Positions 1,926-34,036 of a DNA stretch of 41,609 bases are shown here, in pieces. The notes beneath the pieces were generated by a model. That model had not been told where the DNA came from. It was given only the letters and a program-made list of their open reading frames with translations, and did not search any database. This stretch comes from Candidatus Bathyarchaeota archaeon (lineage in GTDB: Archaea > Thermoproteota > Bathyarchaeia > 40CM-2-53-6 > RBG-13-38-9). Each line of letters opens with the position of its first letter. Position 1 is the first letter of the stretch. Location: assembly GCA_018396565.1 (NCBI GenBank), contig JAGTQO010000004.1, positions 1 through 41,609 on the forward strand, written 5' to 3'. The translations under genes and the position numbers were made by a program.

Positions 1926-2016
1926 TCTTATTCTTGAAGGCGAGGTTTATGATGTGGTGGTCGATCAATAGATGTACCAAGTCATGTGCTCGGTAACATT
2001 AGACCTCATCTACCTC

Positions 2017-3240: not shown

Positions 3241-3579
3241 AAATACCGATTCTATTTGGAAGGCTAAAAACATTAGCTAAAAGTTTAATGGAGTGACAGA
3301 CATGAACCTCCCCAACCTTTGCCTTAATGATGTGCTGAATACTTGACGCTGCTCAATTTCCAATCTCAAATCTGTGAGAGAACCTGAGGAGCAGTTGGTG
3401 GGGTGACTCTTCCCACTCAAAATATAATCATCAGTAGTTTATCTAAGCTGATGAGACTCTGCTTATAGGCAACTCTCAACGTGTAATATCAGTGGGCTGC
3501 AAATAGGGTATATGCCTTGATTTCAAGTTTGACCTTAAGGTTGATGTAAATCTTGTTCAAACTGAAGAGCATCGAGGTC

Positions 3580-3975
3580 CTACTCCTCTTTCAGCTTCTC
3601 AGATATTGACTTCAACCTCCCACCCTCAAGAATTCTTATCTTCACATCGAATCTCGGCTTCAACCCTAGGGTTCTGAGTATGTAGAGGAGTTGACCCTCA
3701 TCCAGAGCCTCGCTTATCTCCCCCCTGAGCACCATGCGGGCGAGACCGTCCTCAAGCCTCTTCATGACTTGGGGGTACTGTCTGCAGGCTACATCCCAAA
3801 CCTCCTCCGCCCTGCCGACAAATATTTTCTTTAAGACTTCCCTCGAATCGATCTTCTTTATACCCGCCTCTAAACCAACCCTTCTATCTTCTTCAATCTT
3901 CTTTGCTAGAAGTCTCCTCTGCATCTCCAATAGTTTACGCTTCTTGAGGAGATCCAGATCAGTATCCTCAGACAT
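3580..3975 (-). CDS. Divergent PDCD5/TFAR19-like (dsDNA_bind) protein, paralog of 7471..7815
   Basis: The N-terminal LLKKRKLLEMQRRL helix and the C-terminal IFVGRAEEVWDV..YPQVMKRLEDGLARMVLRGEISEALDEGQLLYIL...VKIRI follow the layout of the canonical copy ([10 protein letters not shown]...[55 protein letters not shown]). Confidence 0.45.
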   Translation of the reverse strand: MSEDTDLDLLKKRKLLEMQRRLLAKKIEEDRRVGLEAGIKKIDSREVLKKIFVGRAEEVWDVACRQYPQVMKRLEDGLARMVLRGEISEALDEGQLLYILRTLGLKPRFDVKIRILEGGRLKSISEKLKEE

Positions 3976-4038
3976 TTAGTCACTCGCCCTTGACTATCAA
4001 CAGAGTTGGTTTGATGGTTAAAAACATATTTTCAAAGA

Positions 4039-5409: not shown

Positions 5410-5479
5410 GCTGGATTCTCTCCTAAGGATCTTCGATCCCAATAACCCGGCATACAATACATTAAATGTAAAATCCACC

Positions 5480-6184
5480 TCACCTATTCTGAACAACCTC
5501 ATCAGCTCCGGTTACATCTATATATGCAAATATTAGCCAGGAAGTCACTGTCCAGCTGTCGAGTCCCGAACTGTATATTCTGAATGTCTTATCTAGGAGG
5601 CTGATGGTTTCCTTGGAGAAGTGGCCTCTGGGGAAACCCCCTACTAGAACAGCCGGCCTATCATGGCTCGCAATCAAACCTACAACATCTTTGATCCCTC
5701 TACTCTCTCCCCTCATCGATATCTCAACCTTCAATGTTGGATCTATGTTTCTGAGCAGCTCTTCAACCCCCATTCCTCTGATTTTCATTAAAGGTTCACC
5801 CTCTGGAGGTACCTGGCCAAACTCGTATAGTTGCTCCATTAAACCTTTGAATCTCTCGCTGTTTCTGGGAACTCTTACTTTTGGAGAGATGAATATGACT
5901 TCGTCATTTCTTGTATGTATATAGATCTTCAAGTTTCCAGTCAAGTTTAGGGGTGAGCTCAAGGCTGTCAGTAAGGTGATATGTATTATGTCTGGTCTAC
6001 CCCTTCTATGGGCATCCCTTAACCCCGCCATCGCTTGATGGTGGTAGGACCTGTCGAGTATGAGCTGCTCAGGCCTCTTACACCGCTTCCTAGCGTCCTT
6101 CACGATCGAAGGGTGATCTAATATCTCCCTTGGAACAGGCTCCAAAGCAGATTCGGCGAGAACTATGAATAGCAAGTCTGCCAC
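5480..6184 (-). CDS. nep1: rRNA small-subunit pseudouridine methyltransferase Nep1/Emg1
   Basis: LILDRSYHHQAM...RGRPDIIHITLL and the SPOUT-like C-terminus are typical of Nep1. The start codon is GTG. Confidence 0.8.
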   Translation of the reverse strand: MADLLFIVLAESALEPVPREILDHPSIVKDARKRCKRPEQLILDRSYHHQAMAGLRDAHRRGRPDIIHITLLTALSSPLNLTGNLKIYIHTRNDEVIFISPKVRVPRNSERFKGLMEQLYEFGQVPPEGEPLMKIRGMGVEELLRNIDPTLKVEISMRGESRGIKDVVGLIASHDRPAVLVGGFPRGHFSKETISLLDKTFRIYSSGLDSWTVTSWLIFAYIDVTGADEVVQNR

Positions 6185-6229
6185 GAAGATTTAACTCTTA
6201 AGAATCATAATTTAAATTGGGATGGTCCC

Positions 6230-6574
6230 ATGGCGAGGATCAGTAGCCGTTATAAGGAGCTGGCCTCAGAGAGAATAGAGAGACTCTTCGAGTTGGCTGG
6301 AGAATGTTTCAAGGAGAACCCCCACCTCGCGGACAGATATGTGGAGCTTGCGAGAAAGATAGGGATGAAGTGTCGGGTAAGGATTCCAAAACACCTGAAG
6401 ATGCGTTTCTGCAAGGGGTGCGGTTCATACCTTGTTTTCGGAGTCAACTCAAGGGTTAGGACAAGACCTGAAGGGGATGGGAGGGTTGTTGTTACATGTC
6501 TAAAATGCGGGGTGGTCAAAAGATATCCGATGTTAAGGGAGAAGGCCCATCGAAGAAAAAGTTTCGGAGACTGA
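6230..6574 (+). CDS. rnp4: RNase P protein component 4 (Rpp21/Rpr2)
   Basis: An N-terminal helical ERIERLFELA...ADRYVELARKI is followed by the zinc ribbon FCKGCGSYL...VVVTCLKCG. Confidence 0.8.
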   Translation: MARISSRYKELASERIERLFELAGECFKENPHLADRYVELARKIGMKCRVRIPKHLKMRFCKGCGSYLVFGVNSRVRTRPEGDGRVVVTCLKCGVVKRYPMLREKAHRRKSFGD

Positions 6575-6834
6575 GTGAAAGATCCGCTTCCGCCAAGCCT
6601 AAGATCTGGGTCGGTAAGGCCGGTCTTACAGATGAGTTTATCACACAGCTTAAGAAGCAGCTTAAGGTCGATAAACTTGTTAAGGTGAAAGTTCAAAAGA
6701 GTTTCGCTTCGGTACATGGGATGAATGAGATCACCGGGGCGGCTGCCGCCGCGACAGGAGCGTACGTCATCGATGTGAGGGGTAGGACATTCACCCTTTA
6801 CAGGGAGAAGGACGATGTGTCTGAAACTTCTTGA
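6496..6834 (+). CDS. YhbY/CRS1-type RNA-binding protein (UPF0044)
   Basis: KPKIWVGKAGLTDEFITQLKKQLKVDKLVKVKV ... FTLYRE matches the YhbY/CRM domain pattern. The 5' end overlaps rnp4 by 70-79 nt in another frame. Confidence 0.6.
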   Translation: MSKMRGGQKISDVKGEGPSKKKFRRLSERSASAKPKIWVGKAGLTDEFITQLKKQLKVDKLVKVKVQKSFASVHGMNEITGAAAAATGAYVIDVRGRTFTLYREKDDVSETS

Positions 6835-7015
6835 CGATGTCTGTTTTTAGCCTTCATTTGAGTGAGCATTTTGGAAATAGAATATTTGAAATCGTTAGGT
6901 TAACATATATATTACAGGTTAAACCTTTACCCTACTTAATTCTACGAAAACTTATATTGTGCGTTTCAGTCAAGTGGTTAAAGTCAAACTGAAATATTGA
7001 TGAAGAAAAGGGGCG

Positions 7016-7468
7016 ATGCATTACTTGCCGACACCTTTCGATGTTCCGGCAGACGAGATGATCAAAAGGCTGGCCACATACCTCAAGGAGAATATAGGCG
7101 AGGTCACACCGCCGGCTTGGTCCCTCACATCGAAGACCGGATCACATACTGAACATCCTCCACAAGACCCTGATTGGTGGTACACAAGGTGCGCCTCTAT
7201 CCTACGTAAACTCTACATTCACGGCCCCACAGGAGTATCTAGGTTAAGGTCTGAGTATGGTGGGCGGAAGAGGCGTGGAACAAGAAGAGAACATGTTAGG
7301 CGTGGAGGTGGATCATCTGTTAGGGAGCCTCTCCAGCAATTGGAGAGAGCGAAATTGGTGGCAAAGGTTAACAAGAAGGGTCGTGGACTCACAAGTGAAG
7401 GCGTGAGTTTACTGAACAGGATCGCTGCGGAGATATTGAAAGAGAGTAAGGTTGAAGGTGGAAGGTGA
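7016..7468 (+). CDS. rps19e: 30S ribosomal protein S19e
   Basis: [51 protein letters not shown] is canonical eS19. Confidence 0.9.
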
Positions 7469-7470
7469 GG

Positions 7471-7815
7471 ATGAGTATCGGCGAGCCAACGGATGAGGAG
7501 CTTGAGCTTATCCGTAGAAGGAAACTCTCTGAACTTCAACGTGCCATGGCTGATGAGCAGAAGGCTGAGAGATTACAGAGTCAACTTGAGGCTCAGAAGC
7601 AAAGTATTCTCAGGGTGATACTTACACCTGAGGCTAGGCAGAGGTTGACGAACATAAAAATGGTGAGGCCTGAGTTTGCTGAGCAGATTGAACTCCAGCT
7701 TATCCAGCTCGCCCAGGCTGGGAGGATCCGTGTTCCACTGACTGACGAGCAGCTTAAGGAGACGCTGAGGAGGATCCAAAGCCAGAGGAGAGAGATTAAG
7801 ATAAGGAGGATCTAG
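7471..7815 (+). CDS. DNA-binding protein, PDCD5/TFAR19 homolog
   Basis: It occupies the conserved archaeal position between rps19e and rpl39e and has the dsDNA_bind motif pattern. GGTGA precedes ATG 7471. Confidence 0.8.
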
Positions 7816-7817
7816 AT

Positions 7818-7974
7818 TTGGCCAGAAATAAGCCGGTATCGAAGAAGAGGAGGTTAGGTCGGGCCCATAAGAGGAGCAGACCTGTACCGACATGGGTTGT
7901 CGCTAAAACTCGTGGAAAGGTGAGGGCTACCTCCAGGAGGAGGCATTGGAGAAGAAGCAAACTAAAGATTTAGG
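7818..7974 (+). CDS. rpl39e: 50S ribosomal protein L39e, interrupted by an apparent 1-nt insertion (frameshift at about 7919-7921)
   Basis: TTG start at 7818 with AGGAGG 7 nt upstream. Frame 0 gives (M)ARNKPVSKKRRLGRAHKRSRPVPTWVVAKTRGK. The conserved C-terminus VRATSRRRHWRRSKLKI* is in the +1 frame (7921..7974). It is not in the supplied ORF track. Confidence 0.7.
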
Positions 7975-7984
7975 GTGAGAATCC

Positions 7985-8332
7985 ATGTCATCGAACAAGA
8001 GCAGTGAAGAGCCTGAAGAAGTTGAGGAGATAGAGGAGGTTGAGGAGAAGCCTGTTGAAGCTGAAGAAGTGGAGGTTGTTGAGGAGAAGTTCTACACGAT
8101 CAACTTAAGGGATGTTTGGACTACTCCAAGGGGGAGGAGAACCCCTAAAGCCATCAGGGTCTTGAAAGATTACATAAGAAGACATATGAAGGTTGAGGAT
8201 TTCAAGATAAGCAATGAAGTCAACCAAATGGTTTGGGGCATGTCCTTAAAGAAGCCTCCTAGGAGATTGATTGTGAGGGCCGTCAAGGATAAGGAAGGGA
8301 ATGTGATAATATTTCCAGCCAAGTCTACTTGA
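7985..8332 (+). CDS. rpl31e: 50S ribosomal protein L31e with an acidic N-terminal extension
   Basis: FYTINLRDVWTTPRGRRTPKAIRVLKDYIRRHMK is canonical eL31. GGGTGAG precedes the ATG. Confidence 0.85.
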   Translation: MSSNKSSEEPEEVEEIEEVEEKPVEAEEVEVVEEKFYTINLRDVWTTPRGRRTPKAIRVLKDYIRRHMKVEDFKISNEVNQMVWGMSLKKPPRRLIVRAVKDKEGNVIIFPAKST

Positions 8333-8358
8333 GCTATGTTGGGAATCCGTGGCGTCGA

Positions 8359-9750
8359 CTAATCAGCTTCTCCCCTTATCTTCGAATATCTATACATCAC
8401 AGCCAGTGCTTGAGCAGCTTCCTCAGGTGAGTAATAGACTGGGATATTCTCCTTCTCAAGTATTGCTCTCATCTTCTCAACCAAAACCCAATCGCTTGAT
8501 GCGTAAGCGATTATGGGTTTGTCAGGATGTTTCCTTGAAGCCTCAGATATGAATCTGTGATCTTTTAATTCGAATCCTTCAGTAAACTGGAACCCTGCAA
8601 TTATGGCGTCGACGTTCTCATCCTCGAAAAGAGCCTCGATCCCGACTTTGTAAGCTTCATCAACCCCTATATATGTGACTGAAGGCCAGATATCGTAAGG
8701 GTTCCCAACCCTTATGAACGGTGGGCTGGCCTTTCTGAATCTTTCAAGGGTCTTCTCCGAGAGGTTTGCTAGGTCGAGGCCTAGAAGTTGGCATGCGTCT
8801 GCGCTTATTACGCCCAAGCCTCCGGAGGGCGTTATGACCCCTACTTTATTGCCTTTTGGAGGTTGCTGGAACACGAAGGCCTTAGTATAATTTACCAGGT
8901 CCATATAGTTATTGACCCTTATAACACCGGCCTGCTTAAGAGCCGCATCCAATATAGCATCGTCTGCTGCAAGTGAAGCCGTATGCGACATAGCAGCCTT
9001 AGAGCCTGCAGGTGTCCTCCCCGACTTCAATGCTAAGATAGGCTTCTTCTTTGACACTCTCTTGGCAACTTCCACGAATCGTCTACCGTCCTTCAAACCT
9101 TCGATATACATAGCTATGACCTTCGTGTGGGGGTCGCTCTCTAAATACTCTAGGGCGTCAGCATCGTCTACGTCACACTTGTTCCCTAATCCTATTATCC
9201 TACTTATCCCGAAATTCTCCCTAGTCACTATCCACCTGAAAGTTATTGATGCAAAGTTTCCAGTCTGAGCTATGTAGGCGGCTGATCCAGGATTATAGTC
9301 TACCTTGAAGAAGGTTGTTGAGAATCGTCCTGGAATGCTGACTATTCCAGTTGTATTCGGCCCAATGATCCTCATTCCATATTTTCGGCCAATCTCCACA
9401 ATCTCTTGCTGCATCTTAGCGCCTTTCTCATCTACCTCACTGAATCCTCCTGCAATTATAACCGTATGTTTTACTCCTTTCTCAGCCAGGTCCTTTACAA
9501 CGCCCACTACAGCCTCAGCGGGTACAAGTACCAATCCTACATCGACAGGTTCAGGTATGTCCTTGACGTTTGGATACGCCTTCAGCCCCTGAATCTCATT
9601 AGCTTTTGGATTTACTGGAAAGATCTTTCCTGGATACCCGAGCCTGATCAGGTTCTCAACTGCAACATAACCCAGTTTTCCAGGTGTGGTCGACGCTCCT
9701 ACGACAGCTACGCTTTTAGGGTTGAAGAATTTATCTAGACTCGTCTTCAT
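8359..9750 (-). CDS. acdA: ADP-forming acetyl-CoA synthetase, alpha (CoA-binding/CoA-ligase) subunit
   Basis: FFNPKSVAVVGAS...PGKLGY...VNPK (CoA-binding Rossmann fold) and MSHTASLA (phosphohistidine loop). The start was placed at MKTSLDKFF (ATG 9750), preceded by GGAG. Confidence 0.8.
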   Translation of the reverse strand: MKTSLDKFFNPKSVAVVGASTTPGKLGYVAVENLIRLGYPGKIFPVNPKANEIQGLKAYPNVKDIPEPVDVGLVLVPAEAVVGVVKDLAEKGVKHTVIIAGGFSEVDEKGAKMQQEIVEIGRKYGMRIIGPNTTGIVSIPGRFSTTFFKVDYNPGSAAYIAQTGNFASITFRWIVTRENFGISRIIGLGNKCDVDDADALEYLESDPHTKVIAMYIEGLKDGRRFVEVAKRVSKKKPILALKSGRTPAGSKAAMSHTASLAADDAILDAALKQAGVIRVNNYMDLVNYTKAFVFQQPPKGNKVGVITPSGGLGVISADACQLLGLDLANLSEKTLERFRKASPPFIRVGNPYDIWPSVTYIGVDEAYKVGIEALFEDENVDAIIAGFQFTEGFELKDHRFISEASRKHPDKPIIAYASSDWVLVEKMRAILEKENIPVYYSPEEAAQALAVMYRYSKIRGEAD

Positions 9751-9882
9751 ATCTCCACTTTCCCCCCTCAAAGAAATATTCAATTGATAAAAAGATTTTC
9801 TATTTCTAGGGTTAAACCCCATCTGGTCGTTTTAATAAGTTTTATTAGCCCTACCCTACATCGCCTATATAGGGTGTTAAGT

Positions 9883-10593
9883 ATGGTGAAGATAATAGAT
9901 CTCAGCCAAGAGATATATAATGGGATGCCTGTCTTCCCAGGCCACCTGAATACTGTGATATTCCCATTCCACACCCATGAGGGGACAGTAGGTAAGATCC
10001 ATGGGACCAAAGGCGGATTCACCTATACAACTTTCGGTCTACTCATGTCTGATCATGGTCCTACCCACACTGACTCGATATGGCATATATGTAACAAGCC
10101 AGGTGCCAAGAAGATAGATGAGATCCCCCTCGAATGGTTCTACACGAGCGCAATATGTCTGGACTTCACACATATCAAACCTCGAGGGATCATATCAGTT
10201 AAGGATCTTGAGGATGCCTTGGTCAAGGCCAGACTCGATGTTAGGAAGGGAGACACTGTGCTCCTTTACACAGGGCACTATACCAGGACCTATCCGAGAC
10301 CCGAGTATCTGACTGAGAATCCAGGTTTAGATTACGATTCCACAGCTTGGCTTGCCGAGCGTGGTGTAGTCAATATTGGGATAGACGCCACAACAATAGA
10401 TTCATGTGGAAATACTGCTACAGGCTTCTTCCCTGCTCATGAGGTCTGCTGTGAATACGGTATAATGAATACTGAGAACCTATGCAATCTAGATAAGGTT
10501 GCAGGGAGACGCTTCACATACGTTGGTCTACCCCTCAAGATACGTGGAGGCACAGGGTCGCCGATAAGGGCCGTAGCTGTCCTTGAAGAGTAG
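9883..10593 (+). CDS. Putative cyclase / kynurenine-formamidase-like metal hydrolase (PF04199-like)
   Basis: MVKIIDLSQEIYNGMPVFPGH... and DHGPTHTDSIWH (HxGTHxD-type motif). Confidence 0.65.
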   Translation: MVKIIDLSQEIYNGMPVFPGHLNTVIFPFHTHEGTVGKIHGTKGGFTYTTFGLLMSDHGPTHTDSIWHICNKPGAKKIDEIPLEWFYTSAICLDFTHIKPRGIISVKDLEDALVKARLDVRKGDTVLLYTGHYTRTYPRPEYLTENPGLDYDSTAWLAERGVVNIGIDATTIDSCGNTATGFFPAHEVCCEYGIMNTENLCNLDKVAGRRFTYVGLPLKIRGGTGSPIRAVAVLEE

Positions 10594-10603
10594 ATAATAT
10601 AAA

Positions 10604-10614
10604 TTTTCTTTTTT
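10604..10614 (+). terminator. Oligo-T tract downstream of the cyclase gene (archaeal-type terminator candidate)
   Basis: TTTTCTTTTTT lies 10 nt after the stop codon, in a convergent intergenic gap. Confidence 0.3.
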
Positions 10615-10660
10615 ATCAATTACTCTTAGAACCTTTCTATTTCTGCTTTTCCAAGGGAAG

Positions 10661-11761
10661 CTAGTAGGAGTCAGCCATCTCCAGTTTAGCAGGTAAATAC
10701 TCGTCAACTATGTATGTTAAGCCATATCTACTGAATGCTTCCTGCTCAGCCTTCTTCTTTATCCTCATGAATGTCTCTATCTCTCTGCTCCAGATTTTAC
10801 CTTCATATCTTGGGTCCTTCCTCAATTCATGTAGCCTCTTGATGTCTAGCTCCGTCAATTTATCGCTTGGGAGCTTATACTCAACTATGTCTGAGGCCCA
10901 TACGCCGAACCACTTCGCATCCGGTGTGTTCAAGTCGCGGAGGTGTGCGGCGTTCGCTGAACCCGATATTATAACCATCGCAATATGCATACCCCAAGGG
11001 TCTCCGTCTGTGAATATGTATACAGGTAGGCCGAGTTCCTGATTCAACCTCCTAAGGAAGCTTCTTGTAGCCCTCGGCGCTTGGCCCGCTGTATGGACTA
11101 GGAGGGCCTTATGTTTGATGTGCACCCGCTCCTCTATGAATCTTGTGAAGAGGCCCCCCTTCTCTATTGCTATAACTTTATCCGCTTTACAGTCGATAAA
11201 CTCGGCCCCTGTCAGCGCAGGCCCTATCATCATGCCATCTGGGTGTGAGGTGAGGTTGAGTCTCCTTCCTTCATATCCTGGAATCGTATACTCTATGGTC
11301 AGGTCTCCGAATATTGCGCTCCTCTCTTCAGGGAAGACGTTGAAGTCTTCTCTTGAATATCCTATAACGGTCTCAAGGTCTGTGATGAGGTTGTCGCTCT
11401 CCTGCTGGTCTGTGAAGGACATCTCATAGGCTTGGGCTGAGTAGAAGACGTCTCTGAGGGTGCTGGTCTTACTCTGTCTGGTCAGGTCGTTGACGAACAT
11501 AGCTGTCCAAATCAGCTGGGTTAAGGGTCTGATATGTCTGATGTTTCTTGAGCTTCTTCTCACACTCCTGTTGCCCAATATGTACTGTCTGAGTTTCTGG
11601 TCGTATAGTATGTTGTTTATTGATCTGCTAGGCATCTTTATCCACGGAAACTCTCCCGCAATTATTTGGCGGTAGATCCTCTCACCTAGGTTTTGGAGGG
11701 ATGTAAGAACCTTCTCCTTCCTCTCTCTGACAGCTCCCCTTGAAGACTCATTCTTCGACAT
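10661..11761 (-). CDS. top6A: DNA topoisomerase VI subunit A (Spo11 family)
   Basis: LRDVFYSAQ (catalytic Tyr region). Toprim motifs IAIEKGG and FTDGDPWG. Overlaps the top6B C-terminal ORF by 14 nt. Confidence 0.95.
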   Translation of the reverse strand: MSKNESSRGAVRERKEKVLTSLQNLGERIYRQIIAGEFPWIKMPSRSINNILYDQKLRQYILGNRSVRRSSRNIRHIRPLTQLIWTAMFVNDLTRQSKTSTLRDVFYSAQAYEMSFTDQQESDNLITDLETVIGYSREDFNVFPEERSAIFGDLTIEYTIPGYEGRRLNLTSHPDGMMIGPALTGAEFIDCKADKVIAIEKGGLFTRFIEERVHIKHKALLVHTAGQAPRATRSFLRRLNQELGLPVYIFTDGDPWGMHIAMVIISGSANAAHLRDLNTPDAKWFGVWASDIVEYKLPSDKLTELDIKRLHELRKDPRYEGKIWSREIETFMRIKKKAEQEAFSRYGLTYIVDEYLPAKLEMADSY

Positions 11762-12605
11762 ATTTTGCGATGCTCCCTAAAAGTTTCTTGACGTCTGGAA
11801 TCTTCTCTCTATTCGCAAGTTTGGCTGAGAAGGATGCGATCTTTGGCAGATACTTTGAGAATACATCGAGCCTCCTCCTCTCTCTCTCCATATGGTGTTT
11901 CCTAGATAAAAATAGGGCAAGTTGCCTGGCGACCTCCCTCAGAGCGTTCAGAATCTCATGTTCAACCTCAGGCCTATCCGCTATGAACTCTTTCCCAACG
12001 GTCTTGTAGGGTATCTTGAGGCTGCATATGTGGATGAAGACCGCGATAGGTGTCTCTGGTGTGACTTTGTAGTGTCTCCAGTTCATCAACTCGTTCACAA
12101 CCTTATATGATATGTCGCTGGCCTCATCGAATAGAAGCGGTATCCTATTCGCGAATCTGTATAGTAGGATGCCGTCTGTCTTGAGTATGCCTCCGCCGTA
12201 GGCTACCCCAACCTCGACTATGAATGGAAATCCCGAATAAGCCGCCGGCTTCCTCTGGTGAACGGCAACAAATTCAGGGTTGAGCTCCTTCTTTATCCCT
12301 GTCTTCAGAAGGTCCTTCCCTAAAGGTGATAGGCAACTTGCGTCTGGAGGGAGGAATCCATCGTAATTCTTAAGGGCGTTCACGAGCCTAACGATCTCGT
12401 CTTGGGTGAGCCTCTTAGGATTCTTCTTGATTCCGACGTCCGCAAACTCTAGGAACCTCCTAGCTATCTTCTCGCCAACCCTCTGGAAATGCTTCTTCAT
12501 AAACTCCTTCATAGTCTTGGAGTCTGTAGCCTCAATCATCCTCTTCAGGGTCTCTATGTCTATTCCATGTGGATGGGGTGTAGTCTCACTTGGAGGCTTG
12601 GGCAT
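11748..12605 (-). CDS. top6B: DNA topoisomerase VI subunit B, C-terminal fragment (H2TH + transducer domains)
   Basis: MPKPPSETTPHPHGID...LTQDEIVRLVNALK...RKPAAYSGFPFIVEVGVAYGG is the H2TH/transducer part of Top6B. It is in the same reading frame as 12621..14486, separated from it by TGA-TAG plus 4 codons. No Shine-Dalgarno motif is evident upstream. Confidence 0.85.
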   Translation of the reverse strand: MPKPPSETTPHPHGIDIETLKRMIEATDSKTMKEFMKKHFQRVGEKIARRFLEFADVGIKKNPKRLTQDEIVRLVNALKNYDGFLPPDASCLSPLGKDLLKTGIKKELNPEFVAVHQRKPAAYSGFPFIVEVGVAYGGGILKTDGILLYRFANRIPLLFDEASDISYKVVNELMNWRHYKVTPETPIAVFIHICSLKIPYKTVGKEFIADRPEVEHEILNALREVARQLALFLSRKHHMERERRRLDVFSKYLPKIASFSAKLANREKIPDVKKLLGSIAKYVEE

Positions 12606-12620
12606 GATGCTTGTTGCCTA

Positions 12621-14486
12621 TCAGAACCTGTATAGTCTACCCCTGGGATCCACAAAAGTCAGGTTTGCATATGGGACGACTATGGCGGTCTCCTTCAAAT
12701 ATTCAAGGATCTTGGGCATGGCTCTTGAGTAATCGGCTTCAGTAGTGAACTCAACAATCGTTCCATGCCATCTCGACTTGTTGATGTGGACCCTATGTTT
12801 TGTAACTATAGGCTTGTTCCTCTGTATGTCCATCATCAAGACATACTCATGAATCTTGGATGTTCCTACACTTGAGATGACTCTCGTCTGGCCGTGGGTG
12901 GTTATCTGACCGTAGAGGACAGCCATCTTTCCGCCGAGGCCGAATGTTCCTCGGGTGTTATGGCAACAGACGCCTCCTAACCCGCATATGAAATTCTCTC
13001 TTCCAGGTATAGATAGATCGTAAGCGTAGGGTGAGGTTGACTTGACCCTTCTCAATTCGATTATCCTGCAGAACACGAAATCCGGATAATCAGCTGAAGT
13101 TTTGAAGGCCTCATTAGATTCTTTGGCTCCAACCTTCAAAGCCTCATCAAGATTCCGGCCTAACATTTTAATTACATACATTGTATTATTCTTATCCAGC
13201 TCCAATTCTTCGACTGTTGGGAAGACTCCTATAGACATCAACAGATACATCAAATCATAGGCTAGTTTTCGCCTTCGGGTTGGAAAAGATATATGCTCAC
13301 CATCAGCTACGTATCCTCCACCGTTGTATAGGCCTTCTATGAACGCCATCCTGAGCTCGGTGGGGATGTTGAATGCAATTTTAGGGATCTCCCCACTATT
13401 CACTCCTTCTATTTCAATACTGATCGAGGTGGCAGTTGACCCTGGATTGTTCAAAACGAGTCCAGACTCGAGGGAAAAGAAGATTTCAACTTGTTCTTCA
13501 ATATTTGGAGTATCTTTGAATGTTACGGCTAGTTCGTTTGACTGTTCAATTTGAGACCCATCTATTCTAATGGTTGGGCCCTTCTGGAGTTTTTCACCTC
13601 TGCCTACGACGTATCCTAGAGAACTCATGAATTCTTTCGTGAGTGGGATACGTGAATTCTTAGGCTCATCTTCTGCTCTATGATGGCTCAGGCATTTATA
13701 GATGTTTCTGGATGGGTTGCCAGGAAGATTCTCATGTTTATTTGAATTATCCCACTTTGCATGGGTTTTGAGCGGTTTCTCCGATTTTTCACCTTCAACT
13801 TTATATGTGTTGAAAGGTAAGGTTCTTGGAACTGCAACATACTCACCGACCTTCATCTGTTCAACATCTTTCAAGGCGATCCTGCCGTCTTTCATAATGA
13901 ATATGCTGTGGCCGCCGGTTACTCTGACCTTTCTGCCACCCTCCAGCCTAACCTCATATAGTGGCTCATCGACTGTGTGTCTGGAGACATGTGATATTCT
14001 GCCCCATGAGAACCTGAAGTTCTCAAGGTTGAAAGCTAAGGTCTCATAGCCTCTCTCATGAATATTCTTAATAATCTCGTTAGGTTTGAGGAATTGCTCG
14101 ACGAACCTTCCTATCTCGACAGATTCAATGTTCCGCCCATTTCTTATCAGTATCCTCTCGTTGTAGTCTACGCTCTGCCTGAGTCTGTATTTCGAGCCGA
14201 AGAGGACTTGGCCGAAAGCCGATGGTATAACCTCGGCTGGAAGGCCTGAACCGTTATCTTGGATCCTTATCTTGTAAACAGCGGGATCCGCTGTGGTCTC
14301 AGCCTGAGGGGAGACCCTTATGTAGATGTCTGGGAGGATGCCATGGATCTCACATGCATCCAGAGAGTTCTCAACCAACTCTCTAATTGTTGAGTATAAT
14401 GCCCTCGAAGGATTTGTGAAACCTGCGATATCCCTGTTCCTATAGAAGAAGTCTGACGGGGTTATCTCCTTGAACTCTTCAGCCAA
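12621..14486 (-). CDS. top6B: DNA topoisomerase VI subunit B, N-terminal GHKL ATPase fragment containing an intein
   Basis: Bergerat-fold motifs ELVENSLDA (N box) and QDNGSGL (G1). The G2 box is split: FGSKYRLRQ | intein | TRGTFGLGG. TTG start with GGTGA upstream. The ORF ends ..FVDPRGRLYRF TGA TAG. Confidence 0.9.
   Translation of the reverse strand: MAEEFKEITPSDFFYRNRDIAGFTNPSRALYSTIRELVENSLDACEIHGILPDIYIRVSPQAETTADPAVYKIRIQDNGSGLPAEVIPSAFGQVLFGSKYRLRQSVDYNERILIRNGRNIESVEIGRFVEQFLKPNEIIKNIHERGYETLAFNLENFRFSWGRISHVSRHTVDEPLYEVRLEGGRKVRVTGGHSIFIMKDGRIALKDVEQMKVGEYVAVPRTLPFNTYKVEGEKSEKPLKTHAKWDNSNKHENLPGNPSRNIYKCLSHHRAEDEPKNSRIPLTKEFMSSLGYVVGRGEKLQKGPTIRIDGSQIEQSNELAVTFKDTPNIEEQVEIFFSLESGLVLNNPGSTATSISIEIEGVNSGEIPKIAFNIPTELRMAFIEGLYNGGGYVADGEHISFPTRRRKLAYDLMYLLMSIGVFPTVEELELDKNNTMYVIKMLGRNLDEALKVGAKESNEAFKTSADYPDFVFCRIIELRRVKSTSPYAYDLSIPGRENFICGLGGVCCHNTRGTFGLGGKMAVLYGQITTHGQTRVISSVGTSKIHEYVLMMDIQRNKPIVTKHRVHINKSRWHGTIVEFTTEADYSRAMPKILEYLKETAIVVPYANLTFVDPRGRLYRF
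12957..14174 (-). mobile_element. Intein (406 aa, LAGLIDADG homing-endonuclease type) inserted in the Top6B ATP-lid/G2 motif
   Basis: Ser1 (SVDYNERILI, block A), block B RVTGGHSIFI (TxxH), LAGLIDADG-like LGYVVGRGE and FIEGLYNGGGYV, block F YAYDLSIPGRENFICG, and block G GVCCHN followed by Thr+1. Removing it restores ..RLRQ-TRGTFGLGG.., which fits the conserved Q(S/T)RG..G.G of Top6B. Confidence 0.85.
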
Positions 14487-25524: not shown

Positions 25525-26994
25525 TCACGGTGAGTACTTGAATGGGTGCTTGGCCCTCTCCTTATTCTCTAACAATTCTTCTATTGTGGGTCTACCTTCG
25601 AGAGCCCTCCTGATGGCGTGTCTCACAGCTTTATAATTGTTTATGTAGACCCTTCTCCTATCGACGGCTGAAGGATGTATGAACACGTTCACCATAATGA
25701 TCAGGCTCTCGACAGACCTTTCAGGGATCAGACCTTCAGCTACGCTGTCAACCACAGCCTTTGCGACAGCTGCTTGGGCTGGACCGTAGATTATGCTTGC
25801 CTGCCTCATGCTCTTTATGGTTACTGTAGGTATTATCAGTGTCGTCGGCTTCACTGCGAGGTTCGGTTCAAGAATCGCTATTAGAGGTTCATGTCCGGCT
25901 GATGGCGTCGCCTTGGCTTTGACGAAGGCCTCTCCAACAGGGCCGTCTTTGAGTCCGATGATGACCTCGACATGAGCGACCTCAGCCCCATCCCCGGCGA
26001 GGCCCTCCCCAACCCTTATCTCAGGGCCCTCCACCGGCACCATATCTTTGACAGCGAATTCGGAGGCGCCGCCTCGGACAGCTATCTCAGGGGCGAGAGC
26101 TCTACGCTCAATCTTCCCAACCCTCTCCAACTCTATTCTCAACTCCTCAAAGTCTTCGTATGAGAGTTCGCCTCCCACCGATAGTGGGAGCCTGACAGGG
26201 CCTACTTTGATATTCATCATGTTGAGGGCTGCCTTGGCTCCGACAGGCCCGCTCTTAACGATTATTCTACATATCTTCTGGATGCTTGTCTGAATCTTTT
26301 GGGCCTCAGCCATATTCTCCTTAAATCTGCGGTATAGTCTGAGCCAAATATCCGGTATGAAGTTTGCACTGGCAAGGATCATTCCTGATGCGCCTGCGGC
26401 TAGGGCTGGGAGAACAACTTCATCATGGCCGCAGAGAATCGAGAGTCTCGAACCTGTCTTCTCTATGACAGTAAGTATATACTTTATCTCGCCGCTACTG
26501 TCTTTTAAGCCTAATATATTCGGTATCTCAACGAGGTCTTCGACCATCTGCCAACTCAAGTTAACACCAGTGGCTTGTGGAATATTGTATAGGACTATTG
26601 GTAGATCAACCTTGTCCGCCAGGACCCTGTAATGTTCATATATACCCCTATCTGTAGGTTTATGGTAGTAGGGTGTGACAACCAAGGCGGCGTCTGCGCC
26701 TACATCCTTGGCGTGGCGTGTAAGTTCAACAGCTGCATTTGTGCTGCTGTGGCCTGTTCCCGCGATTACAGGAACCTTACCGTTTGCTTGGTCGACAACA
26801 TATTCTACGACCCTCTTACGCTCCTCAAGGGTGAGGTTCTGGCACTCCCCAGTCGTTCCACATGGAACCAGGCCGTTTACTCCACTCTCAACGGTGTAGT
26901 CTACAAGCCTCCTCAATCTGGCCTCATCGATTTCCTCCCCCGAATCTGTGAAGGGTGTGACGAGGGCGGGGAAGACTCCCTCCAGCCTCAACAT
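25525..26994 (-). CDS. Fusion protein: DapA/NAL-family class I aldolase (aa 1-~295) + formaldehyde-activating enzyme (Fae) domain (aa ~325-489)
   Basis: The N-terminal half has GTTGE, TPYY, YNIP and the Schiff-base Lys context ILGLKDSSG. The C-terminal half, VGEGLAGDGAEVAHVEVIIG...LIAILEPNLAVKPTTLI...VTIKSMRQASIIYGPAQAAVAKAVVDSVAEGLIP...VNVFIHP...KHPF, is collinear with Fae as I recall it from Methylobacterium extorquens. Confidence 0.8.
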   Translation of the reverse strand: MLRLEGVFPALVTPFTDSGEEIDEARLRRLVDYTVESGVNGLVPCGTTGECQNLTLEERKRVVEYVVDQANGKVPVIAGTGHSSTNAAVELTRHAKDVGADAALVVTPYYHKPTDRGIYEHYRVLADKVDLPIVLYNIPQATGVNLSWQMVEDLVEIPNILGLKDSSGEIKYILTVIEKTGSRLSILCGHDEVVLPALAAGASGMILASANFIPDIWLRLYRRFKENMAEAQKIQTSIQKICRIIVKSGPVGAKAALNMMNIKVGPVRLPLSVGGELSYEDFEELRIELERVGKIERRALAPEIAVRGGASEFAVKDMVPVEGPEIRVGEGLAGDGAEVAHVEVIIGLKDGPVGEAFVKAKATPSAGHEPLIAILEPNLAVKPTTLIIPTVTIKSMRQASIIYGPAQAAVAKAVVDSVAEGLIPERSVESLIIMVNVFIHPSAVDRRRVYINNYKAVRHAIRRALEGRPTIEELLENKERAKHPFKYSP

Positions 26995-28700: not shown

Positions 28701-30200
28701 ATGGAAATCCGTAGAACAGTCGAAGAGATCAATGAGAAGATTGAGAGGGGAGACGCCGTAGTTGTAACTGCTGAAGAGATGACTGAGATAGTTAAGAGTA
28801 AGGGGGTTCACGTTGCCGCTAGGGAGGTGGATGTGGTTACGACAGGTACATTCGGCGCAATGTGCAGTTCAGGGGTCTTCATCAACTTCGGCCATACAGA
28901 CCCTCCGATAAAGATGGATAGGGTCACATTGAACGGTGTGGAGGCATACCATGGGAACGCAGCGGTCGACGTATACTTGGGAGCTACGAAGATGCATCCT
29001 GAGAAGATGTTTGAGTATGGTGGGGGCCACGTCATCGAGGATCTGGTCTCAGGTAGGGAGATAGAGGTTGTGGCGTCAGGGTTCCAGACCGACTGTTACC
29101 CAAGAAAATCTGTGAGGACGACGATAACTATCGACGACCTCAACCAAGCTATCCTTTGCAACCCCCGAAACGGCTACCAGAGATATAACGCCGCGTCGAA
29201 CGGTAGGGATGAACTCATCTACACCTACATGGGTAAACTCCTTCCGAACTATGGGAACGCAACCTTCTCAGGGTCAGGGGAACTCAACCCACTGACAAAC
29301 GACCCTGACTACGAGACTATAGGGGTTGGAACCAGAATATTTCTAGGCGGAGGCATAGGATATGTAACAGGTCCGGGGACCCAGCATGATCCAGTGAACG
29401 GCTTCGGAACTCTCATGGTTCAGGGAGACCTCAAAAGGATGAGTCCAAGATTCTTGAGGGGAGGCAGCTTCACAAATTACGGCACAACCCTGTACGTCGG
29501 CCTCGGCATACCCATACCTGTGTTGAATGAAGGCATAGCGGAGAAGACAGGGATCAGTGACGAGGAGATAAAGACAAACCTTCTAGACTATGGAGTTCCA
29601 CGTAGGAGCAGGCCCATACTCAAGCAGACAGACTATGCGGAGCTCAAATCTGGCAAGATAGTGTTCAGAGACAGATCGATCCACGTCAGCTCCCTGTCAA
29701 GCCTGAAGATGGCAAGAGAGGTTGCGTCTACATTGAAGAGATGGATTGAAGAAGGCACATTCCTGCTCACAAATCCTCAGGAGAGGTTGCCATTGCAAGG
29801 AACCATGAAGCCCATGAAGGTTGTTGAGGAGACGCTTTTCGCAAGGCACATAATGGCGCCTGCAGTAACCTGCCATCCAGACGAAGATCTAGATACAATA
29901 GCAGCAAGAATCATTGAAGAGAAGGTCAATCATGTAGTGGTTGTGACACCTGAGAAGAAGCTGAGAGGCATCATCACCTCATTCGACATAACAAAGGCTG
30001 TTGCCTTGAAGGAGAAAGACCTCTCAAAGGTGATGACCCACCAAGTCATAACCGCATCGCCAGATGAGCCTATCGAGTCATGTGCAAAGAAGATGCAGAA
30101 GCACGACATATCAGCATTACCTGTCACCGACATCGACGGGATCGTCATCGGAATAGTTACGAGTGAAAGAATAAGTAGACTCTTCGGAGAGTACCGGTGA
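28701..30200 (+). CDS. COG1900 (DUF39) homocysteine-biosynthesis enzyme with two C-terminal CBS domains (MA1821-type)
   Basis: The N-terminal ~380-aa domain (VVTTGTFGAMCSSG...) is COG1900-like. The C-terminus has tandem CBS repeats (HIMAPAVTCHPDEDL...VVVV; VMTHQVITASPDEPI...ALPV). Confidence 0.8.
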   Translation: MEIRRTVEEINEKIERGDAVVVTAEEMTEIVKSKGVHVAAREVDVVTTGTFGAMCSSGVFINFGHTDPPIKMDRVTLNGVEAYHGNAAVDVYLGATKMHPEKMFEYGGGHVIEDLVSGREIEVVASGFQTDCYPRKSVRTTITIDDLNQAILCNPRNGYQRYNAASNGRDELIYTYMGKLLPNYGNATFSGSGELNPLTNDPDYETIGVGTRIFLGGGIGYVTGPGTQHDPVNGFGTLMVQGDLKRMSPRFLRGGSFTNYGTTLYVGLGIPIPVLNEGIAEKTGISDEEIKTNLLDYGVPRRSRPILKQTDYAELKSGKIVFRDRSIHVSSLSSLKMAREVASTLKRWIEEGTFLLTNPQERLPLQGTMKPMKVVEETLFARHIMAPAVTCHPDEDLDTIAARIIEEKVNHVVVVTPEKKLRGIITSFDITKAVALKEKDLSKVMTHQVITASPDEPIESCAKKMQKHDISALPVTDIDGIVIGIVTSERISRLFGEYR

Positions 30201-30584
30201 ATGAAGGTACATTTGAGTTTCGACAGGGAAAGGACTACGAAGCCGATAATCTCAACCATAATCCTGAGTACAGGAGTTCAAATAAACATTCTCAGGGCGA
30301 AAGTCGACGAGGCAGGTGGAGAGGTTCTCGTCGAGATACCTGACGCCGAAGCAGAGATGGTGATGGATGCTTTCAGGAGTATGGGTGTCAAAGTCCATGT
30401 TGGAAGACATGTGGAGATACTGAGGGAGAGATGCATAGACTGTGGACACTGCATCACAATATGTCCGGTCGAAGCAATATATGCTGAGAGTGACCTGACT
30501 GTGAAACTGAACCAAGAGAAATGCGTAGACTGCGGCGCATGCATAGACTCATGCCCAACAAGGGCAATAAGGGTAATGCAGTAG
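30201..30584 (+). CDS. NIL-domain + 2x[4Fe-4S] ferredoxin protein (MA1822-type)
   Basis: The ATG abuts the upstream TGA. The NIL-like N-terminus (KPIISTIILSTGVQINILRAKV) is followed by CIDCGHCITICP and CVDCGACIDSCP. Confidence 0.8.
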   Translation: MKVHLSFDRERTTKPIISTIILSTGVQINILRAKVDEAGGEVLVEIPDAEAEMVMDAFRSMGVKVHVGRHVEILRERCIDCGHCITICPVEAIYAESDLTVKLNQEKCVDCGACIDSCPTRAIRVMQ

Positions 30585-31336
30585 GATGGGAATACTTGGG
30601 TACTTCCAAAACATTCAGGGTAAAAAGATTTGTTGAGGACAAGTTGATAATTGTGAAGACAGACCATTACGATGCGGCGGAGGCAGCTTTCAAATCTATC
30701 AGAAACAACAGGAGAGCACTCAAAGAATACATTAGACGCTACCCCGAATTTCTATACGCCCTCGACCCCCTCCCAGTGAGAGGCGATGCTCCGGAGATAA
30801 TCTGCAGAATGGCCGAGGCGGCGGAGAGGGCTTCAGTAGGCCCGATGGCGGCTGTGGCTGGGGCACTCGCAGATATTGCGGCCGAGCAGATGGTGAGGGA
30901 AGGAGCAACAGTCGCAGTTGTCGAGAATGGCGGTGAGATATCTGCAAAGAGCGACTCAGACCTGAACATCGGCATATACGCTGGTGAGTCACCACTATCC
31001 GGAAAATTAGGTTTGAAGTTTCTCAAGAACGATCTCCCGGCTGGTGTAGCCACAAGTTCAGGGACTGTCAGCCACGCTCTCAGCCTCGGCTTCGCAGACT
31101 CGGTGACCGTGATAGCTGAGGATGCAGCCATCGCCGACGCGGCTGCAACAGCTGCCGGTAACGCAGTGTCATCAAATGATCTTCCGACCTCCATAAGCTC
31201 AGGTTTGGAGGCTGCTATGAGGATTAAAGGTGTGTGGGGCGCGCTGGTGATAAGGGGGAGCCATGTAGGAATGGCTGGCCGACTCCCAAGACTCCTACTC
31301 ATCGAGGGGAGGCCCGTAGACCTTCCTGAAATCTAA
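30521..31336 (+). CDS. UPF0280 / COG2122 ApbE-like protein
   Basis: VGPMAAVAGALADIAAEQM...VENGGEI...ATSSGT are family-typical segments. The real start is probably downstream of 30521 (ATG 30551 or TTG 30596), which would reduce the overlap with the ferredoxin gene. Confidence 0.65.
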   Translation: MRRLRRMHRLMPNKGNKGNAVGWEYLGTSKTFRVKRFVEDKLIIVKTDHYDAAEAAFKSIRNNRRALKEYIRRYPEFLYALDPLPVRGDAPEIICRMAEAAERASVGPMAAVAGALADIAAEQMVREGATVAVVENGGEISAKSDSDLNIGIYAGESPLSGKLGLKFLKNDLPAGVATSSGTVSHALSLGFADSVTVIAEDAAIADAAATAAGNAVSSNDLPTSISSGLEAAMRIKGVWGALVIRGSHVGMAGRLPRLLLIEGRPVDLPEI

Positions 31337-32584: not shown

Positions 32585-32671
32585 GACAAATCAAGTATAT
32601 TTTTGTACACGAAAGATTAAAATATTTCTCATGAGTCCAAGAAGATGCTAAAAAATACAGTAGTGATCAAG

Positions 32672-34036
32672 ATGAAAAAGATAAAAGTAAACCTACACAC
32701 AGACGAGATACCGACAAAATGGTACAATATCCTTCCAGATCTACCACCAGGCTACCCTCCACCCCTAGATCCGAAAACATTCAAACCGATATCTCCAGAA
32801 CCCATGATGAGACTATTCCCGAAAGAATGCGTTATGCAAGCGGTCTCAACTCAGAGGGAGATAAATATACCCGAGGAGGTTCTGGAGACATACCTTGCGA
32901 TAGGTAGACCAACACCCCTACAGAGGGCGGTCAGGCTTGAGAGGGCCCTTAACACACCTGCGAGAATATACTTTAAGAGGGAAGACGTGAACCCGGCAGG
33001 AAGCCATAAACCAAACACAGCAATAGCCCAAGCATACTACAATATGAAGGAAGGTGTCGAAAGACTCACCACGGAGACAGGGGCTGGACAGTGGGGCTCA
33101 GCCCTAGCCCTCGCCTGCTCACTATTCAACCTTAAGTGCACAGTATATATGACAAGGAGTAGCTACTTGACAAAGCCTGGTCGTCGAATAGTGATGGAAG
33201 CCTTCGGAGCCGAAGTATATCCATCACCGAGCGACAAGACTGACTTCGGCAGGAAGCTATTGGAGAAAGATAAAAATCATCCTGGAAGCCTCGGAATAGC
33301 GATAAGTGAAGCTGTCGAGGACTGCATAAAGAATGAGAGGACAAAATACTCCCTAGGAAGCGTACTCGACTTCGTCTTACTCCACCAGACCATAGTAGGC
33401 TTGGAAGCGAAGAAGCAGATGGAGATCATCGACGAATATCCAGAAGTAGTTGTTGGATGTATCGGAGGCGGCAGCAACTACGCCGGGCTCTGCTACCCGT
33501 TCATCCAAGACAAGCTGAAAGGTAAGAAGGATATAACATTCATCGCCTCTGAACCTAAGGCTGTACCCTCAACCACGAAAGGAGTTTACGAGTATGACTA
33601 CGGGGATACAGCTGAGATAGCTCCAATAGTGAAGATGTATACTGTAGGCCACACATATCAGTGCCCACCCATACACGCCGCAGGCTTAAGATACCATGGT
33701 AAAGCGCCGAGTATGTCGTTCCTAATAAATAAAGGCGTCATGGAGAGTAGGGCTTACACTCAGACTGAAGTCATGGAGGCGGCCAGCCTCTTCGCCAGGA
33801 CCGAGGGTTTCATAGCGGCCCCTGAGACAGCCCACGCCATCAAGACAGTTATAGATCTGGCCATAGAATGCAAGAGGAGAGGAGTCGGTAAGACCATACT
33901 ATTCAACTACAGTGGACACGGACTGCTCGACCTGAAAGTATATGAGGAATACCATAGCAATACACTGCAAGACTTTGAGGCGACAAGAGAGATGCTCGAG
34001 GCCGGATTCAAGTCCCTACCAAAGATCCCGGCCTAA
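32672..34036 (+). CDS. trpB: Tryptophan synthase beta chain, TrpB2 type
   Basis: IPTKWYNILPDLP (TrpB2-specific N-terminus), the PLP Lys context NPAGSHKPNTA, and GGGSNYAG. The start was placed at MKKIKVNL. Confidence 0.9.
   Translation: MKKIKVNLHTDEIPTKWYNILPDLPPGYPPPLDPKTFKPISPEPMMRLFPKECVMQAVSTQREINIPEEVLETYLAIGRPTPLQRAVRLERALNTPARIYFKREDVNPAGSHKPNTAIAQAYYNMKEGVERLTTETGAGQWGSALALACSLFNLKCTVYMTRSSYLTKPGRRIVMEAFGAEVYPSPSDKTDFGRKLLEKDKNHPGSLGIAISEAVEDCIKNERTKYSLGSVLDFVLLHQTIVGLEAKKQMEIIDEYPEVVVGCIGGGSNYAGLCYPFIQDKLKGKKDITFIASEPKAVPSTTKGVYEYDYGDTAEIAPIVKMYTVGHTYQCPPIHAAGLRYHGKAPSMSFLINKGVMESRAYTQTEVMEAASLFARTEGFIAAPETAHAIKTVIDLAIECKRRGVGKTILFNYSGHGLLDLKVYEEYHSNTLQDFEATREMLEAGFKSLPKIPA

Follow-up and report, generated by a model that had tools for sequence, protein, structure and literature searches.

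The formaldehyde-activating enzyme (Fae) interconverts formaldehyde plus tetrahydromethanopterin (H4MPT) and methylene-H4MPT. To our knowledge, the only characterized fusion that contains Fae is the Fae-Hps protein of methanogens (K13812, NF009833), which, as Goenrich et al. reportedly described in 2005, couples Fae to a formaldehyde-releasing reaction of the aldolase type. In another enzyme family, the dihydrodipicolinate synthase DapA uses Lys161 as Schiff-base residue and Thr44, Tyr107, and Tyr133 as a proton relay, and it binds aspartate semialdehyde (ASA) through Arg138 at the opening to its active site (PMC4977564). The DNA analyzed here, a 41,609-nt stretch of a Candidatus Bathyarchaeota archaeon (assembly GCA_018396565.1, contig JAGTQO010000004.1; hereafter, the window), carries a gene whose product joins an N-terminal aldolase of the DHDPS/NAL family to a C-terminal Fae domain. 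What is new is that Fae is fused here to an aldolase of another class, and in another domain order, than in Fae-Hps. Full-text literature searches retrieved no published description of a DHDPS/DapA-Fae fusion, in agreement with the first-pass annotation of this DNA, a reading of the letters alone, whose author knew of no characterized DapA-Fae enzyme.

The gene is one continuous ATG-to-stop open reading frame (ORF) in the ORF listing of the window (Table 1), and its 489-amino-acid (aa) product holds the motifs GTTGE, TPYY, YNIP, GLKDSSG, DGAEVAHVEVIIG, GPAQAAVAKAVVDSVAEG, and KHPF. The first-pass annotation had taken these hallmarks, including the catalytic Lys in GLKDSSG, as signs of a single ORF that joins a DapA/NAL-type aldolase to Fae, and had suggested a check against profile models. 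The check bears this reading out. Pfam DHDPS (PF00701) matches residues 4-272 (275 bits, E = 6.4e−82), and Pfam Fae (PF08714) matches residues 328-485 nearly end to end (profile positions 1-158 of 159, 210 bits, E = 2.3e−62). In NCBIfam, the dapA model TIGR00674 scores 261.6 bits (cut-off, 206.15) and the Fae model TIGR03126 scores 218 bits (equivalog-domain cut-off, 118.05), so that the failure of the C-terminal domain to match Fae profiles, for which the first-pass annotation had allowed, did not occur. An AlphaFold2 monomer model, computed from a 22-sequence alignment, consists of two confident domains and a low-confidence linker at residues 303-324 (mean predicted local distance difference test [pLDDT], 85.4; predicted template-modeling score, 0.85). 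A Foldseek fold search of the PDB found no solved relative with both domains: it returned only single-domain DapA structures that cover the N-terminal half (template-modeling score [TM-score] of about 0.57 relative to the query). The best matches of the aldolase half are DapA structures with 33-38% identity and TM-scores of 0.90-0.95 relative to the target.

A survey of the architecture and its phyletic spread, also suggested in the first-pass annotation, found it in Bathyarchaeia and under Loki-, Thor-, and Korarchaeota labels. An identical protein is encoded on a contig of a second NCBI metagenome-assembled genome (MAG) (GCA_018396425.1, JAGTQQ010000019.1). A search of 5.8 billion proteins gave at least 120 protein clusters with 64-95% identity among the matches listed; all 120 are 485-506 aa long, cover 99-100% of the query, and contain both PF00701 and PF08714, and those that carry an organism name belong to Candidatus Bathyarchaeia/Bathyarchaeota throughout. 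About 14 more fused representatives, at 39-52% identity, came from a search of 50%-identity representatives, and the source labels of these distant clusters are Loki-/Promethearchaeota (112 members), Thorarchaeota, Korarchaeota/Thermoproteota, and one "Anaerolineae bacterium" MAG. When one genome per GTDB species was scanned, at least 594 stretches were found to encode relatives, and the best 80 of them are all from Bathyarchaeia, including the closed 2.17-Mb chromosome OY970072.1. The 120 close homologues match the query at a mean of 68% of aldolase-domain and 74% of Fae-domain residues, versus 26% in the linker, which indicates purifying selection on both domains and not on the linker.

An assembly, frameshift, or gene-calling error that fused two neighboring genes, with a junction at about 26020-26110, is an explanation to which we give practically no credence. 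The ORF is continuous, the linker DNA is in frame, and the 485-506-aa architecture recurs in more than 120 clusters from NCBI, JGI, ENA, and Logan assemblies. The fusion is also found on contigs of 0.9-1.2 Mb, its carriers include JAVZRN010000001.1 (1.24 Mb) and JBEKMQ010000001.1 (1.37 Mb), and the wide recurrence together with the closed chromosome rules such an artifact out. We have almost no doubt that this is a real, conserved two-domain protein.

Two features of the distribution deserve separate mention. In two Bathyarchaeia MAGs, two full-length fusion genes with 66% identity to the query lie on separate contigs (loci L024/L026 on JAVZNC01 contigs 9 and 4, and L030/L034 on JAVZLM01 contigs 11 and 2), which could represent real duplication or mixed-strain bins. 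The cluster with the NCBI name "Anaerolineae bacterium" (P0124, locus L092) comes from a 297-kb contig (ENA ERZ27256810 k141_394382). Judged by the genes around it (Wzy_C, TPR, MatE, TrmO, and AdoHcyase), the contig could come from a bacterium or an archaeon, and the cluster could be due to horizontal transfer or mis-binning.

The aldolase half keeps the catalytic set of its family. Thr47, Tyr110, Tyr136, and Lys164 are the equivalents of Thr44, Tyr107, Tyr133, and Lys161 in the Escherichia coli DapA reference sequence, which is consistent with the alignments made here, and Thr48 is kept as well. In an alignment of 272 sequences, including 133 fused proteins and 124 standalone relatives of 270-330 aa, all but two of the 133 fused proteins (131) have the Schiff-base Lys. 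Judged by these residues, the N-terminal half belongs to the class I pyruvate-type aldolases of the DHDPS/NAL family and has an intact catalytic site.

The arginine specific to DapA, in contrast, is lost. The query reads YNIPQAT where four solved DapAs read YNVP[GS]RT, which places Ala141 at E. coli position 138. Among the 133 fused proteins, this position is occupied by Cys (69), Val (38), Ala (23), or another residue (3), and never by Arg, which 86 of the 124 standalone relatives keep. A group-specific position analysis identified 22 further positions whose residue is shared by at least 85% of the fused proteins yet is rare in Arg138-bearing relatives. Among the changes in the pocket (E. coli numbering), Gly/Ser137 is replaced by Gln, Asp187 by His, position 189 by an invariant Glu, Ser204 by an invariant Leu, and the ExNPxP segment at 246-251 by SGPxG; the family-specific residues of the query are Gln140, His190, Glu192, Leu207, and Ser248-Gly249...Gly252. 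Of 131 fused proteins compared, 121 have His190 and all 131 have Glu192, whereas the Arg138-bearing relatives have D/E/N and variable residues at these positions. In a neighbor-joining (NJ) tree of the aldolase halves on BLOSUM distances, a rough method whose result we use as supportive only, all fused proteins group in a single clade. Arg138 is likewise missing from the two standalone proteins that are sister to this clade (P0156 and P0195), whose contigs, 1.3-1.8 kb long, are too short to provide informative gene context.

The gene neighborhoods agree with this loss in that they contain no lysine pathway. We clustered all ORFs from the best 80 GTDB loci and found no dapB, asd, or lysA within ±10 kb of these Bathyarchaeia loci, none of the three in the window, and no lysine-pathway genes in the loci examined from other lineages. 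The gene context thus speaks against a role in lysine synthesis, and it offers nothing positive on function. Because Arg138 is gone, the pocket is remodeled, the clade is separate, and lysine-pathway context is missing, we consider it probable that the fused protein is not a functional DapA. Databases name it "DapA" or "Fae," and the DapA label is likely a mis-annotation. The first-pass annotation had warned that tight clustering with true DapA in a lysine-biosynthesis context would undermine a distinct function; the fused proteins form a clade of their own, as far as the rough NJ tree can tell, Arg138 is found in 0 of 133, and their loci lack the lysine genes.

A genuine DapA that serves lysine/diaminopimelate synthesis, binds ASA without Arg138, and carries a Fae domain unrelated to its chemistry is in our view improbable. 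Such an enzyme would agree with the name given by NCBI and IMG, with a TIGR00674 score above the cut-off, with closest solved structures that are all DapA, and with the retained equivalents of Thr44, Tyr107, Tyr133, and Lys161. A further point is the HcyBio/COG1900 and NIL-ferredoxin pair located 1.7 kb from the fusion gene, which we take to be the sulfide-dependent homocysteine-synthesis system known from methanogens and, presumably, a user of ASA. We rejected these neighbors as a sign of ASA use, since the arrangement is not conserved: synteny with Alba, the HcyBio/NIL-ferredoxin pair, and a ribophorin-like gene is present at 72% identity and gone at 66%. Against a genuine DapA stand the absence of the ASA-binding Arg138 (PMC4977564) from all 133 fused proteins, the departure of positions 137, 187, 189, 204, and 246-251 from the Arg138-bearing relatives, the separate clade, and the lack of adjacent dapB, lysA, or asd in more than 80 loci. 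In addition, no DapA activity was seen in vitro for a Pseudomonas aeruginosa paralogue of DapA with changes at Thr44, Arg138, and Lys109 (PMC3281039). A tblastn search with E. coli and Nitrososphaeria DapA over 1.49 Mb of loci detected no second DHDPS gene beside the tandem paralogues described below. A protein search with P0143 as the query retrieved bacterial DapAs (NC10/Methylomirabilales); for a canonical dapA of Bathyarchaeia, the cluster names of the nearest standalone matches were uninformative.

Compared with solved DapAs (TIGR00674; 2yxg, 3a5f, and 1dhp), the protein shares the fold and the four catalytic residues, and it differs in the pocket positions listed above and in an extra 195-aa linker and Fae domain. 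Other members of the DHDPS family, such as NanA, KDG aldolase, HOGA1, and YagE/YjhH, are class I pyruvate aldolases that resemble the present protein in lacking Arg138, and they accept other aldehydes; an L142R experiment on NAL was reportedly carried out by Joerger et al. in 2003. These enzymes are not known to be fused to Fae, and the present protein falls far below the cut-offs of the models scored. Accordingly, we rejected NanA (TIGR00683, 170.5 bits versus 382), the DHDPS-family model NF003164 (186 versus 281), archaeal KDG aldolase (Arch_KDGaldase, 112 versus 390), an HpaI-type aldolase (the HpaI-not-DapA model TIGR02313, 217 versus 396.7), and KdgD (130 versus 374) as identities.

The C-terminal half aligns without a gap to the Fae of Methylorubrum (M.) extorquens (PDB 1y5y, residues 5-166; see also 1y60). 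It keeps His22 (His341 in the query), Phe119, His121, the Tyr-Gly-Pro-x-Gln motif, and the KHPF tail, and conservation at the His22 position reaches at least 90% in alignment A1. Unlike the M. extorquens enzyme, which is a free 170-aa subunit, this Fae is a domain of a 489-aa protein, and it has Glu in place of Asp24, Ile in place of Leu53, and Tyr in place of Phe84. Leu53, Phe84, and Phe119 are the residues reported by Acharya et al. in 2005 to contact H4MPT in 1y60, which is consistent with the alignments here; the same authors are said to have found that Fae binds H4MPT in a cleft between neighboring subunits. By alignment, the C-terminal half is a complete Fae domain with its catalytic residues intact.

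Other lineages may bear on where this active site forms. In all five non-Bathyarchaeia loci examined, two DHDPS-Fae paralogues lie in tandem, often with a 4-nt overlap (Table 1), and the Fae domains of four of these five pairs complement each other. The upstream paralogue keeps the (M/L)RQAxxxYGPxQ segment and has lost His22 and the C-terminal NNYK...RHPF tail, while the downstream paralogue keeps His22, Asp24, Phe119, His121, and the RHPF tail and has lost the GPxQ motif. The single-gene forms of Bathyarchaeia and Lokiarchaeota-labeled MAGs keep both sets of residues. Because complementary decay is expected when active sites form between subunits, this pattern suggests that the paralogue pairs make an obligate Fae-domain heteromer with active sites at the interface. 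We know of no earlier description of a heteromer of Fae domains, and the complementary half-sites provide a test case from nature for the location of the Fae active site. An RibD_C gene located upstream of the L008 pair was considered as a pterin reductase and rejected, as it is the archaeal riboflavin-pathway reductase TIGR01508.

By analogy with Fae-Hps, we propose, with a probability of roughly 0.4, that the fusion protein, rather than being DapA, acts as a 4-hydroxy-2-oxoacid aldolase whose reaction is coupled to the exchange of formaldehyde with methylene-H4MPT, a substrate and a coupling that we infer rather than observe. The aldolase would make or cleave a 4-hydroxy-2-oxoacid with formaldehyde as the aldehyde partner, in the simplest case pyruvate + HCHO ↔ 4-hydroxy-2-oxobutanoate. 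The fused Fae would exchange the formaldehyde of the aldolase with the methylene-H4MPT pool of the Wood-Ljungdahl pathway, and free formaldehyde would thereby stay low, in parallel to Fae-Hps. The combined reaction could run in either direction, and in the quaternary structure that we envisage, DHDPS-type dimers would link Fae rings. The presumed hand-over to or from methylene-H4MPT without release of formaldehyde is one likeness to Fae-Hps, and the fusion of Fae to an enzyme of an aldol-type C-C reaction is the other. In contrast to the present protein, Fae-Hps has its Fae at the N terminus, and its partner Hps is a Mg-dependent enzyme of the orotidine monophosphate decarboxylase fold and not a Schiff-base DHDPS/NAL TIM barrel. 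We rejected identity with Fae-Hps because the other half is an N-terminal DHDPS and there is no Hps domain; the Fae-Hps model NF009833 matches through its Fae part only (positions 2-161 of 392, 185 bits versus a cut-off of 274). The pathway into which the proposed exchange would feed has been reported from Bathyarchaeia: hot-spring MAGs carry an archaeal-type Wood-Ljungdahl (H4MPT-pathway) gene set (PMC8407382), and fwd, ftr, mch, and mtd are tabulated in MAGs whose accessions are adjacent to that of the source MAG (PMC8407382 Data Set S2). The one metabolic operon partner seen for the family, a single case in a divergent lineage, is found at the L095 pair, where a gene for a class I (aspartate-aminotransferase-like) aminotransferase (3155-4336) overlaps the end of the second paralogue, with genes for a Liv-type amino-acid ABC transporter (4521-7723) behind it. 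This operon is compatible with 2-oxoacid/amino-acid interconversion, for example, between a homoserine-type amino acid and a 4-hydroxy-2-oxoacid.

Several observations weigh against this proposal. The neighborhoods in the window and the 80 loci contain no one-carbon (C1), H4MPT, ribulose monophosphate (RuMP), homoserine, or pantoate genes; the aldolase half passes the equivalog cut-off for dapA; and the pocket is not obviously made smaller, as might suit a one-carbon aldehyde, when Arg, Asp, and Asn give way to Ala/Cys/Val, His, and Gly. The reverse RuMP route, proposed for most hot-spring lineages, would give Fae a housekeeping role of its own. Moreover, in the L008 pair both paralogues lack Lys161 (Ala and Leu) and Thr44, so that the aldolase halves look catalytically dead, while Fae residues persist and the downstream Fae half is intact. 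In the L095 pair, conversely, the two paralogues have intact aldolase halves and degenerate Fae halves. The two activities are therefore separable, and the architecture can outlive either one. These half-dead lineages weaken the case for obligate channeling and suggest that the assembly itself is perhaps of value; the architecture may be kept partly for assembly rather than for the hand-over of a substrate.

Several of these observations also favor metabolically unrelated halves, in which Fae acts as a housekeeping formaldehyde trap, for example, for formaldehyde from reverse RuMP, and the aldolase acts on another aldehyde, taking a sugar-acid or an amino-acid-derived 4-hydroxy-2-oxoacid. The fusion would then serve assembly or stoichiometry, with the DHDPS dimer and the Fae oligomer stabilizing one large assembly. 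We regard this as quite possible, if doubtful on balance. It accommodates the lineages in which one half is catalytically dead and the architecture is retained, the neighborhoods without C1 genes, and the pocket changes toward smaller residues or His, which are compatible with a larger or hydroxylated aldehyde. However, a stable fusion with both halves conserved over at least four labeled archaeal phyla would be unusual without a functional link, and the sole Fae fusion known to us, Fae-Hps, does couple Fae to a formaldehyde-releasing reaction of the aldolase type. In favor of unrelated halves, a formaldehyde-releasing reverse RuMP route has been proposed for most hot-spring Bathyarchaeia lineages (PMC8407382), and the "widely identified" fae of Bathyarchaeia has already been read as formaldehyde detoxification into the H4MPT pathway (PMC10321748). 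Yet K13812 "fae-hps" is tabulated in four MAGs that have the present gene, and if those calls are real, a housekeeping Fae is already there.

Formally, the architecture would also suit 2-oxoacid + methylene-H4MPT → 4-hydroxy-2-oxoacid + H4MPT, which is the reaction type of PanB. On that basis, the donor could instead be the enamine of a larger 2-oxoacid (2-oxobutyrate or 2-oxoisovalerate), which would make the protein an H4MPT-dependent hydroxymethyltransferase such as a ketopantoate-forming analogue of PanB. Leu207, which lies beside the pyruvate site where 76 of 87 Arg138-bearing relatives have Ser204, would fit a change of donor; the carboxylate- and pyruvate-binding residues Thr47/Thr48, Tyr136, and Lys164 are unchanged, however, and no pantothenate or coenzyme A genes lie nearby, and we consider a larger donor a long shot.

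With pyruvate retained as the donor, the formaldehyde-exchanging aldolase that we propose could be taken one step further, to a two-module enzyme, Fae plus a class I aldolase, that serves in nature as an H4MPT-dependent 2-oxoacid hydroxymethyltransferase (pyruvate + methylene-H4MPT + H2O ↔ 4-hydroxy-2-oxobutanoate + H4MPT). We think this stronger version unlikely. If true, it would be a new C1 + C3 → C4 junction that connects the Wood-Ljungdahl pathway with homoserine and the aspartate-family amino acids in Bathyarchaeia and Asgard archaea. A pyruvate/formaldehyde route to C4 compounds is known to us only as the engineered "homoserine cycle" reaction.

The fusion gene is present in hundreds of species-level Bathyarchaeia genomes and also in Asgard and Korarchaeota MAGs, and its misnaming has consequences. 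Metabolic reconstructions may assign to these organisms a step of lysine synthesis of which the protein is probably incapable, and they may miss the second catalytic domain on "fae." Neither PMC8407382 nor PMC10321748 mentions an aldolase domain on the fae ORF. Four MAGs of the former study (loci L012, L019, L032, and L042) carry the DHDPS-Fae gene, namely QZM_B1_bin_58, JZ_bin_7, DRTY-6_2_bin_115, and QZM_B1_bin_37_1. For each of these, the published table gives one or two "fae-hps" genes (K13812) and one hxlB, but no hxlA (PMC8407382 Data Set S2). The published "fae-hps" and "fae" calls in Bathyarchaeia may partly be this protein, or the genomes may have two Fae domains. If the two halves cooperate, the protein would open a new route, inward or outward, that connects methylene-H4MPT with C4 compounds derived from pyruvate.

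Table 1. Features of the fusion gene in the window and tandem paralogue pairs at five other loci (coordinates of each pair refer to its own locus)
Feature	Coordinates	Strand	Basis
Complete DHDPS-family aldolase/Fae ORF, 489 aa + stop	25525..26994	-	ORF listing, Pfam, NCBIfam, identical protein on JAGTQQ010000019.1
Class I (Schiff-base) aldolase TIM barrel, residues 1-291	26122..26994	-	PF00701, PDB matches
Lys164 codon (E. coli DapA Lys161, Schiff-base lysine)	26503..26505	-	Alignments, codon checked
Gln140-Ala141 codons (DapA Ser/Gly137-Arg138 positions)	26572..26577	-	Alignment to solved DapAs
His190-Asp191-Glu192 (GHDE) codons, replacing DapA G[D/N/E]D	26419..26427	-	Group-specific position analysis
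Interdomain linker, residues 292-327, in frame	26014..26121	-	pLDDT <50 at 303-324; low identity among homologues
Fae domain, residues 328-489	25528..26013	-	PF08714, TIGR03126, gapless alignment to 1y5y
His341 codon (M. extorquens Fae His22)	25972..25974	-	Alignments, codon checked
L008 pair (GCA_003560875.1, PWJQ01000035.1)	8544-10004 + 10001-11449		
L092 pair	8528-9982 + 10001-11479		
L093 pair, Korarchaeota-labeled	8715-10004 + 10001-11398		
L094 pair, Thorarchaeota-labeled	6001-7404 + 7401-8876		
L095 pair	299-1723 + 1729-3162		

The window otherwise consists of ordinary archaeal housekeeping DNA, with genes for Alba, ribosomal proteins, MetRS, topoisomerase VI, a RIO kinase, and a phosphate ABC transporter. 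Scans for Rfam families and tRNAs gave no matches in it. Three neighbors of the fusion gene recur across the 80 loci: a protein of about 238 aa lies downstream in 60 of them, one of 395 aa lies upstream in 56, and one of 242 aa is present in 46. By position in locus L002, the first of these corresponds to a TrmI/GCD14-like methyltransferase, and the 395-aa and 242-aa proteins correspond to genes with no Pfam match. In the window, the genes at 28701-31336 (+) encode the COG1900/HcyBio-CBS protein, the NIL-ferredoxin, and a protein with a weak, sub-threshold match to ApbE.

Three other genes of the window are of separate interest. At 32645-34036 (+), a TrpB-like (TrpB2-type) pyridoxal phosphate enzyme (NF009057, 682 bits) is encoded in a window that holds no other trp genes. 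A 487-aa protein encoded at 4039-5502 (-) combines a reductive-dehalogenase-subunit domain with a double 4Fe-4S domain. Finally, topoisomerase VI subunit B is encoded by two ORFs at 11748-14486 (-): the first (12621-14486) contains the GHKL ATPase, an intein splicing domain, and a LAGLIDADG endonuclease, and the second (11748-12605) contains the transducer domain, so that this intein-bearing gene is also split or frameshifted after the intein.

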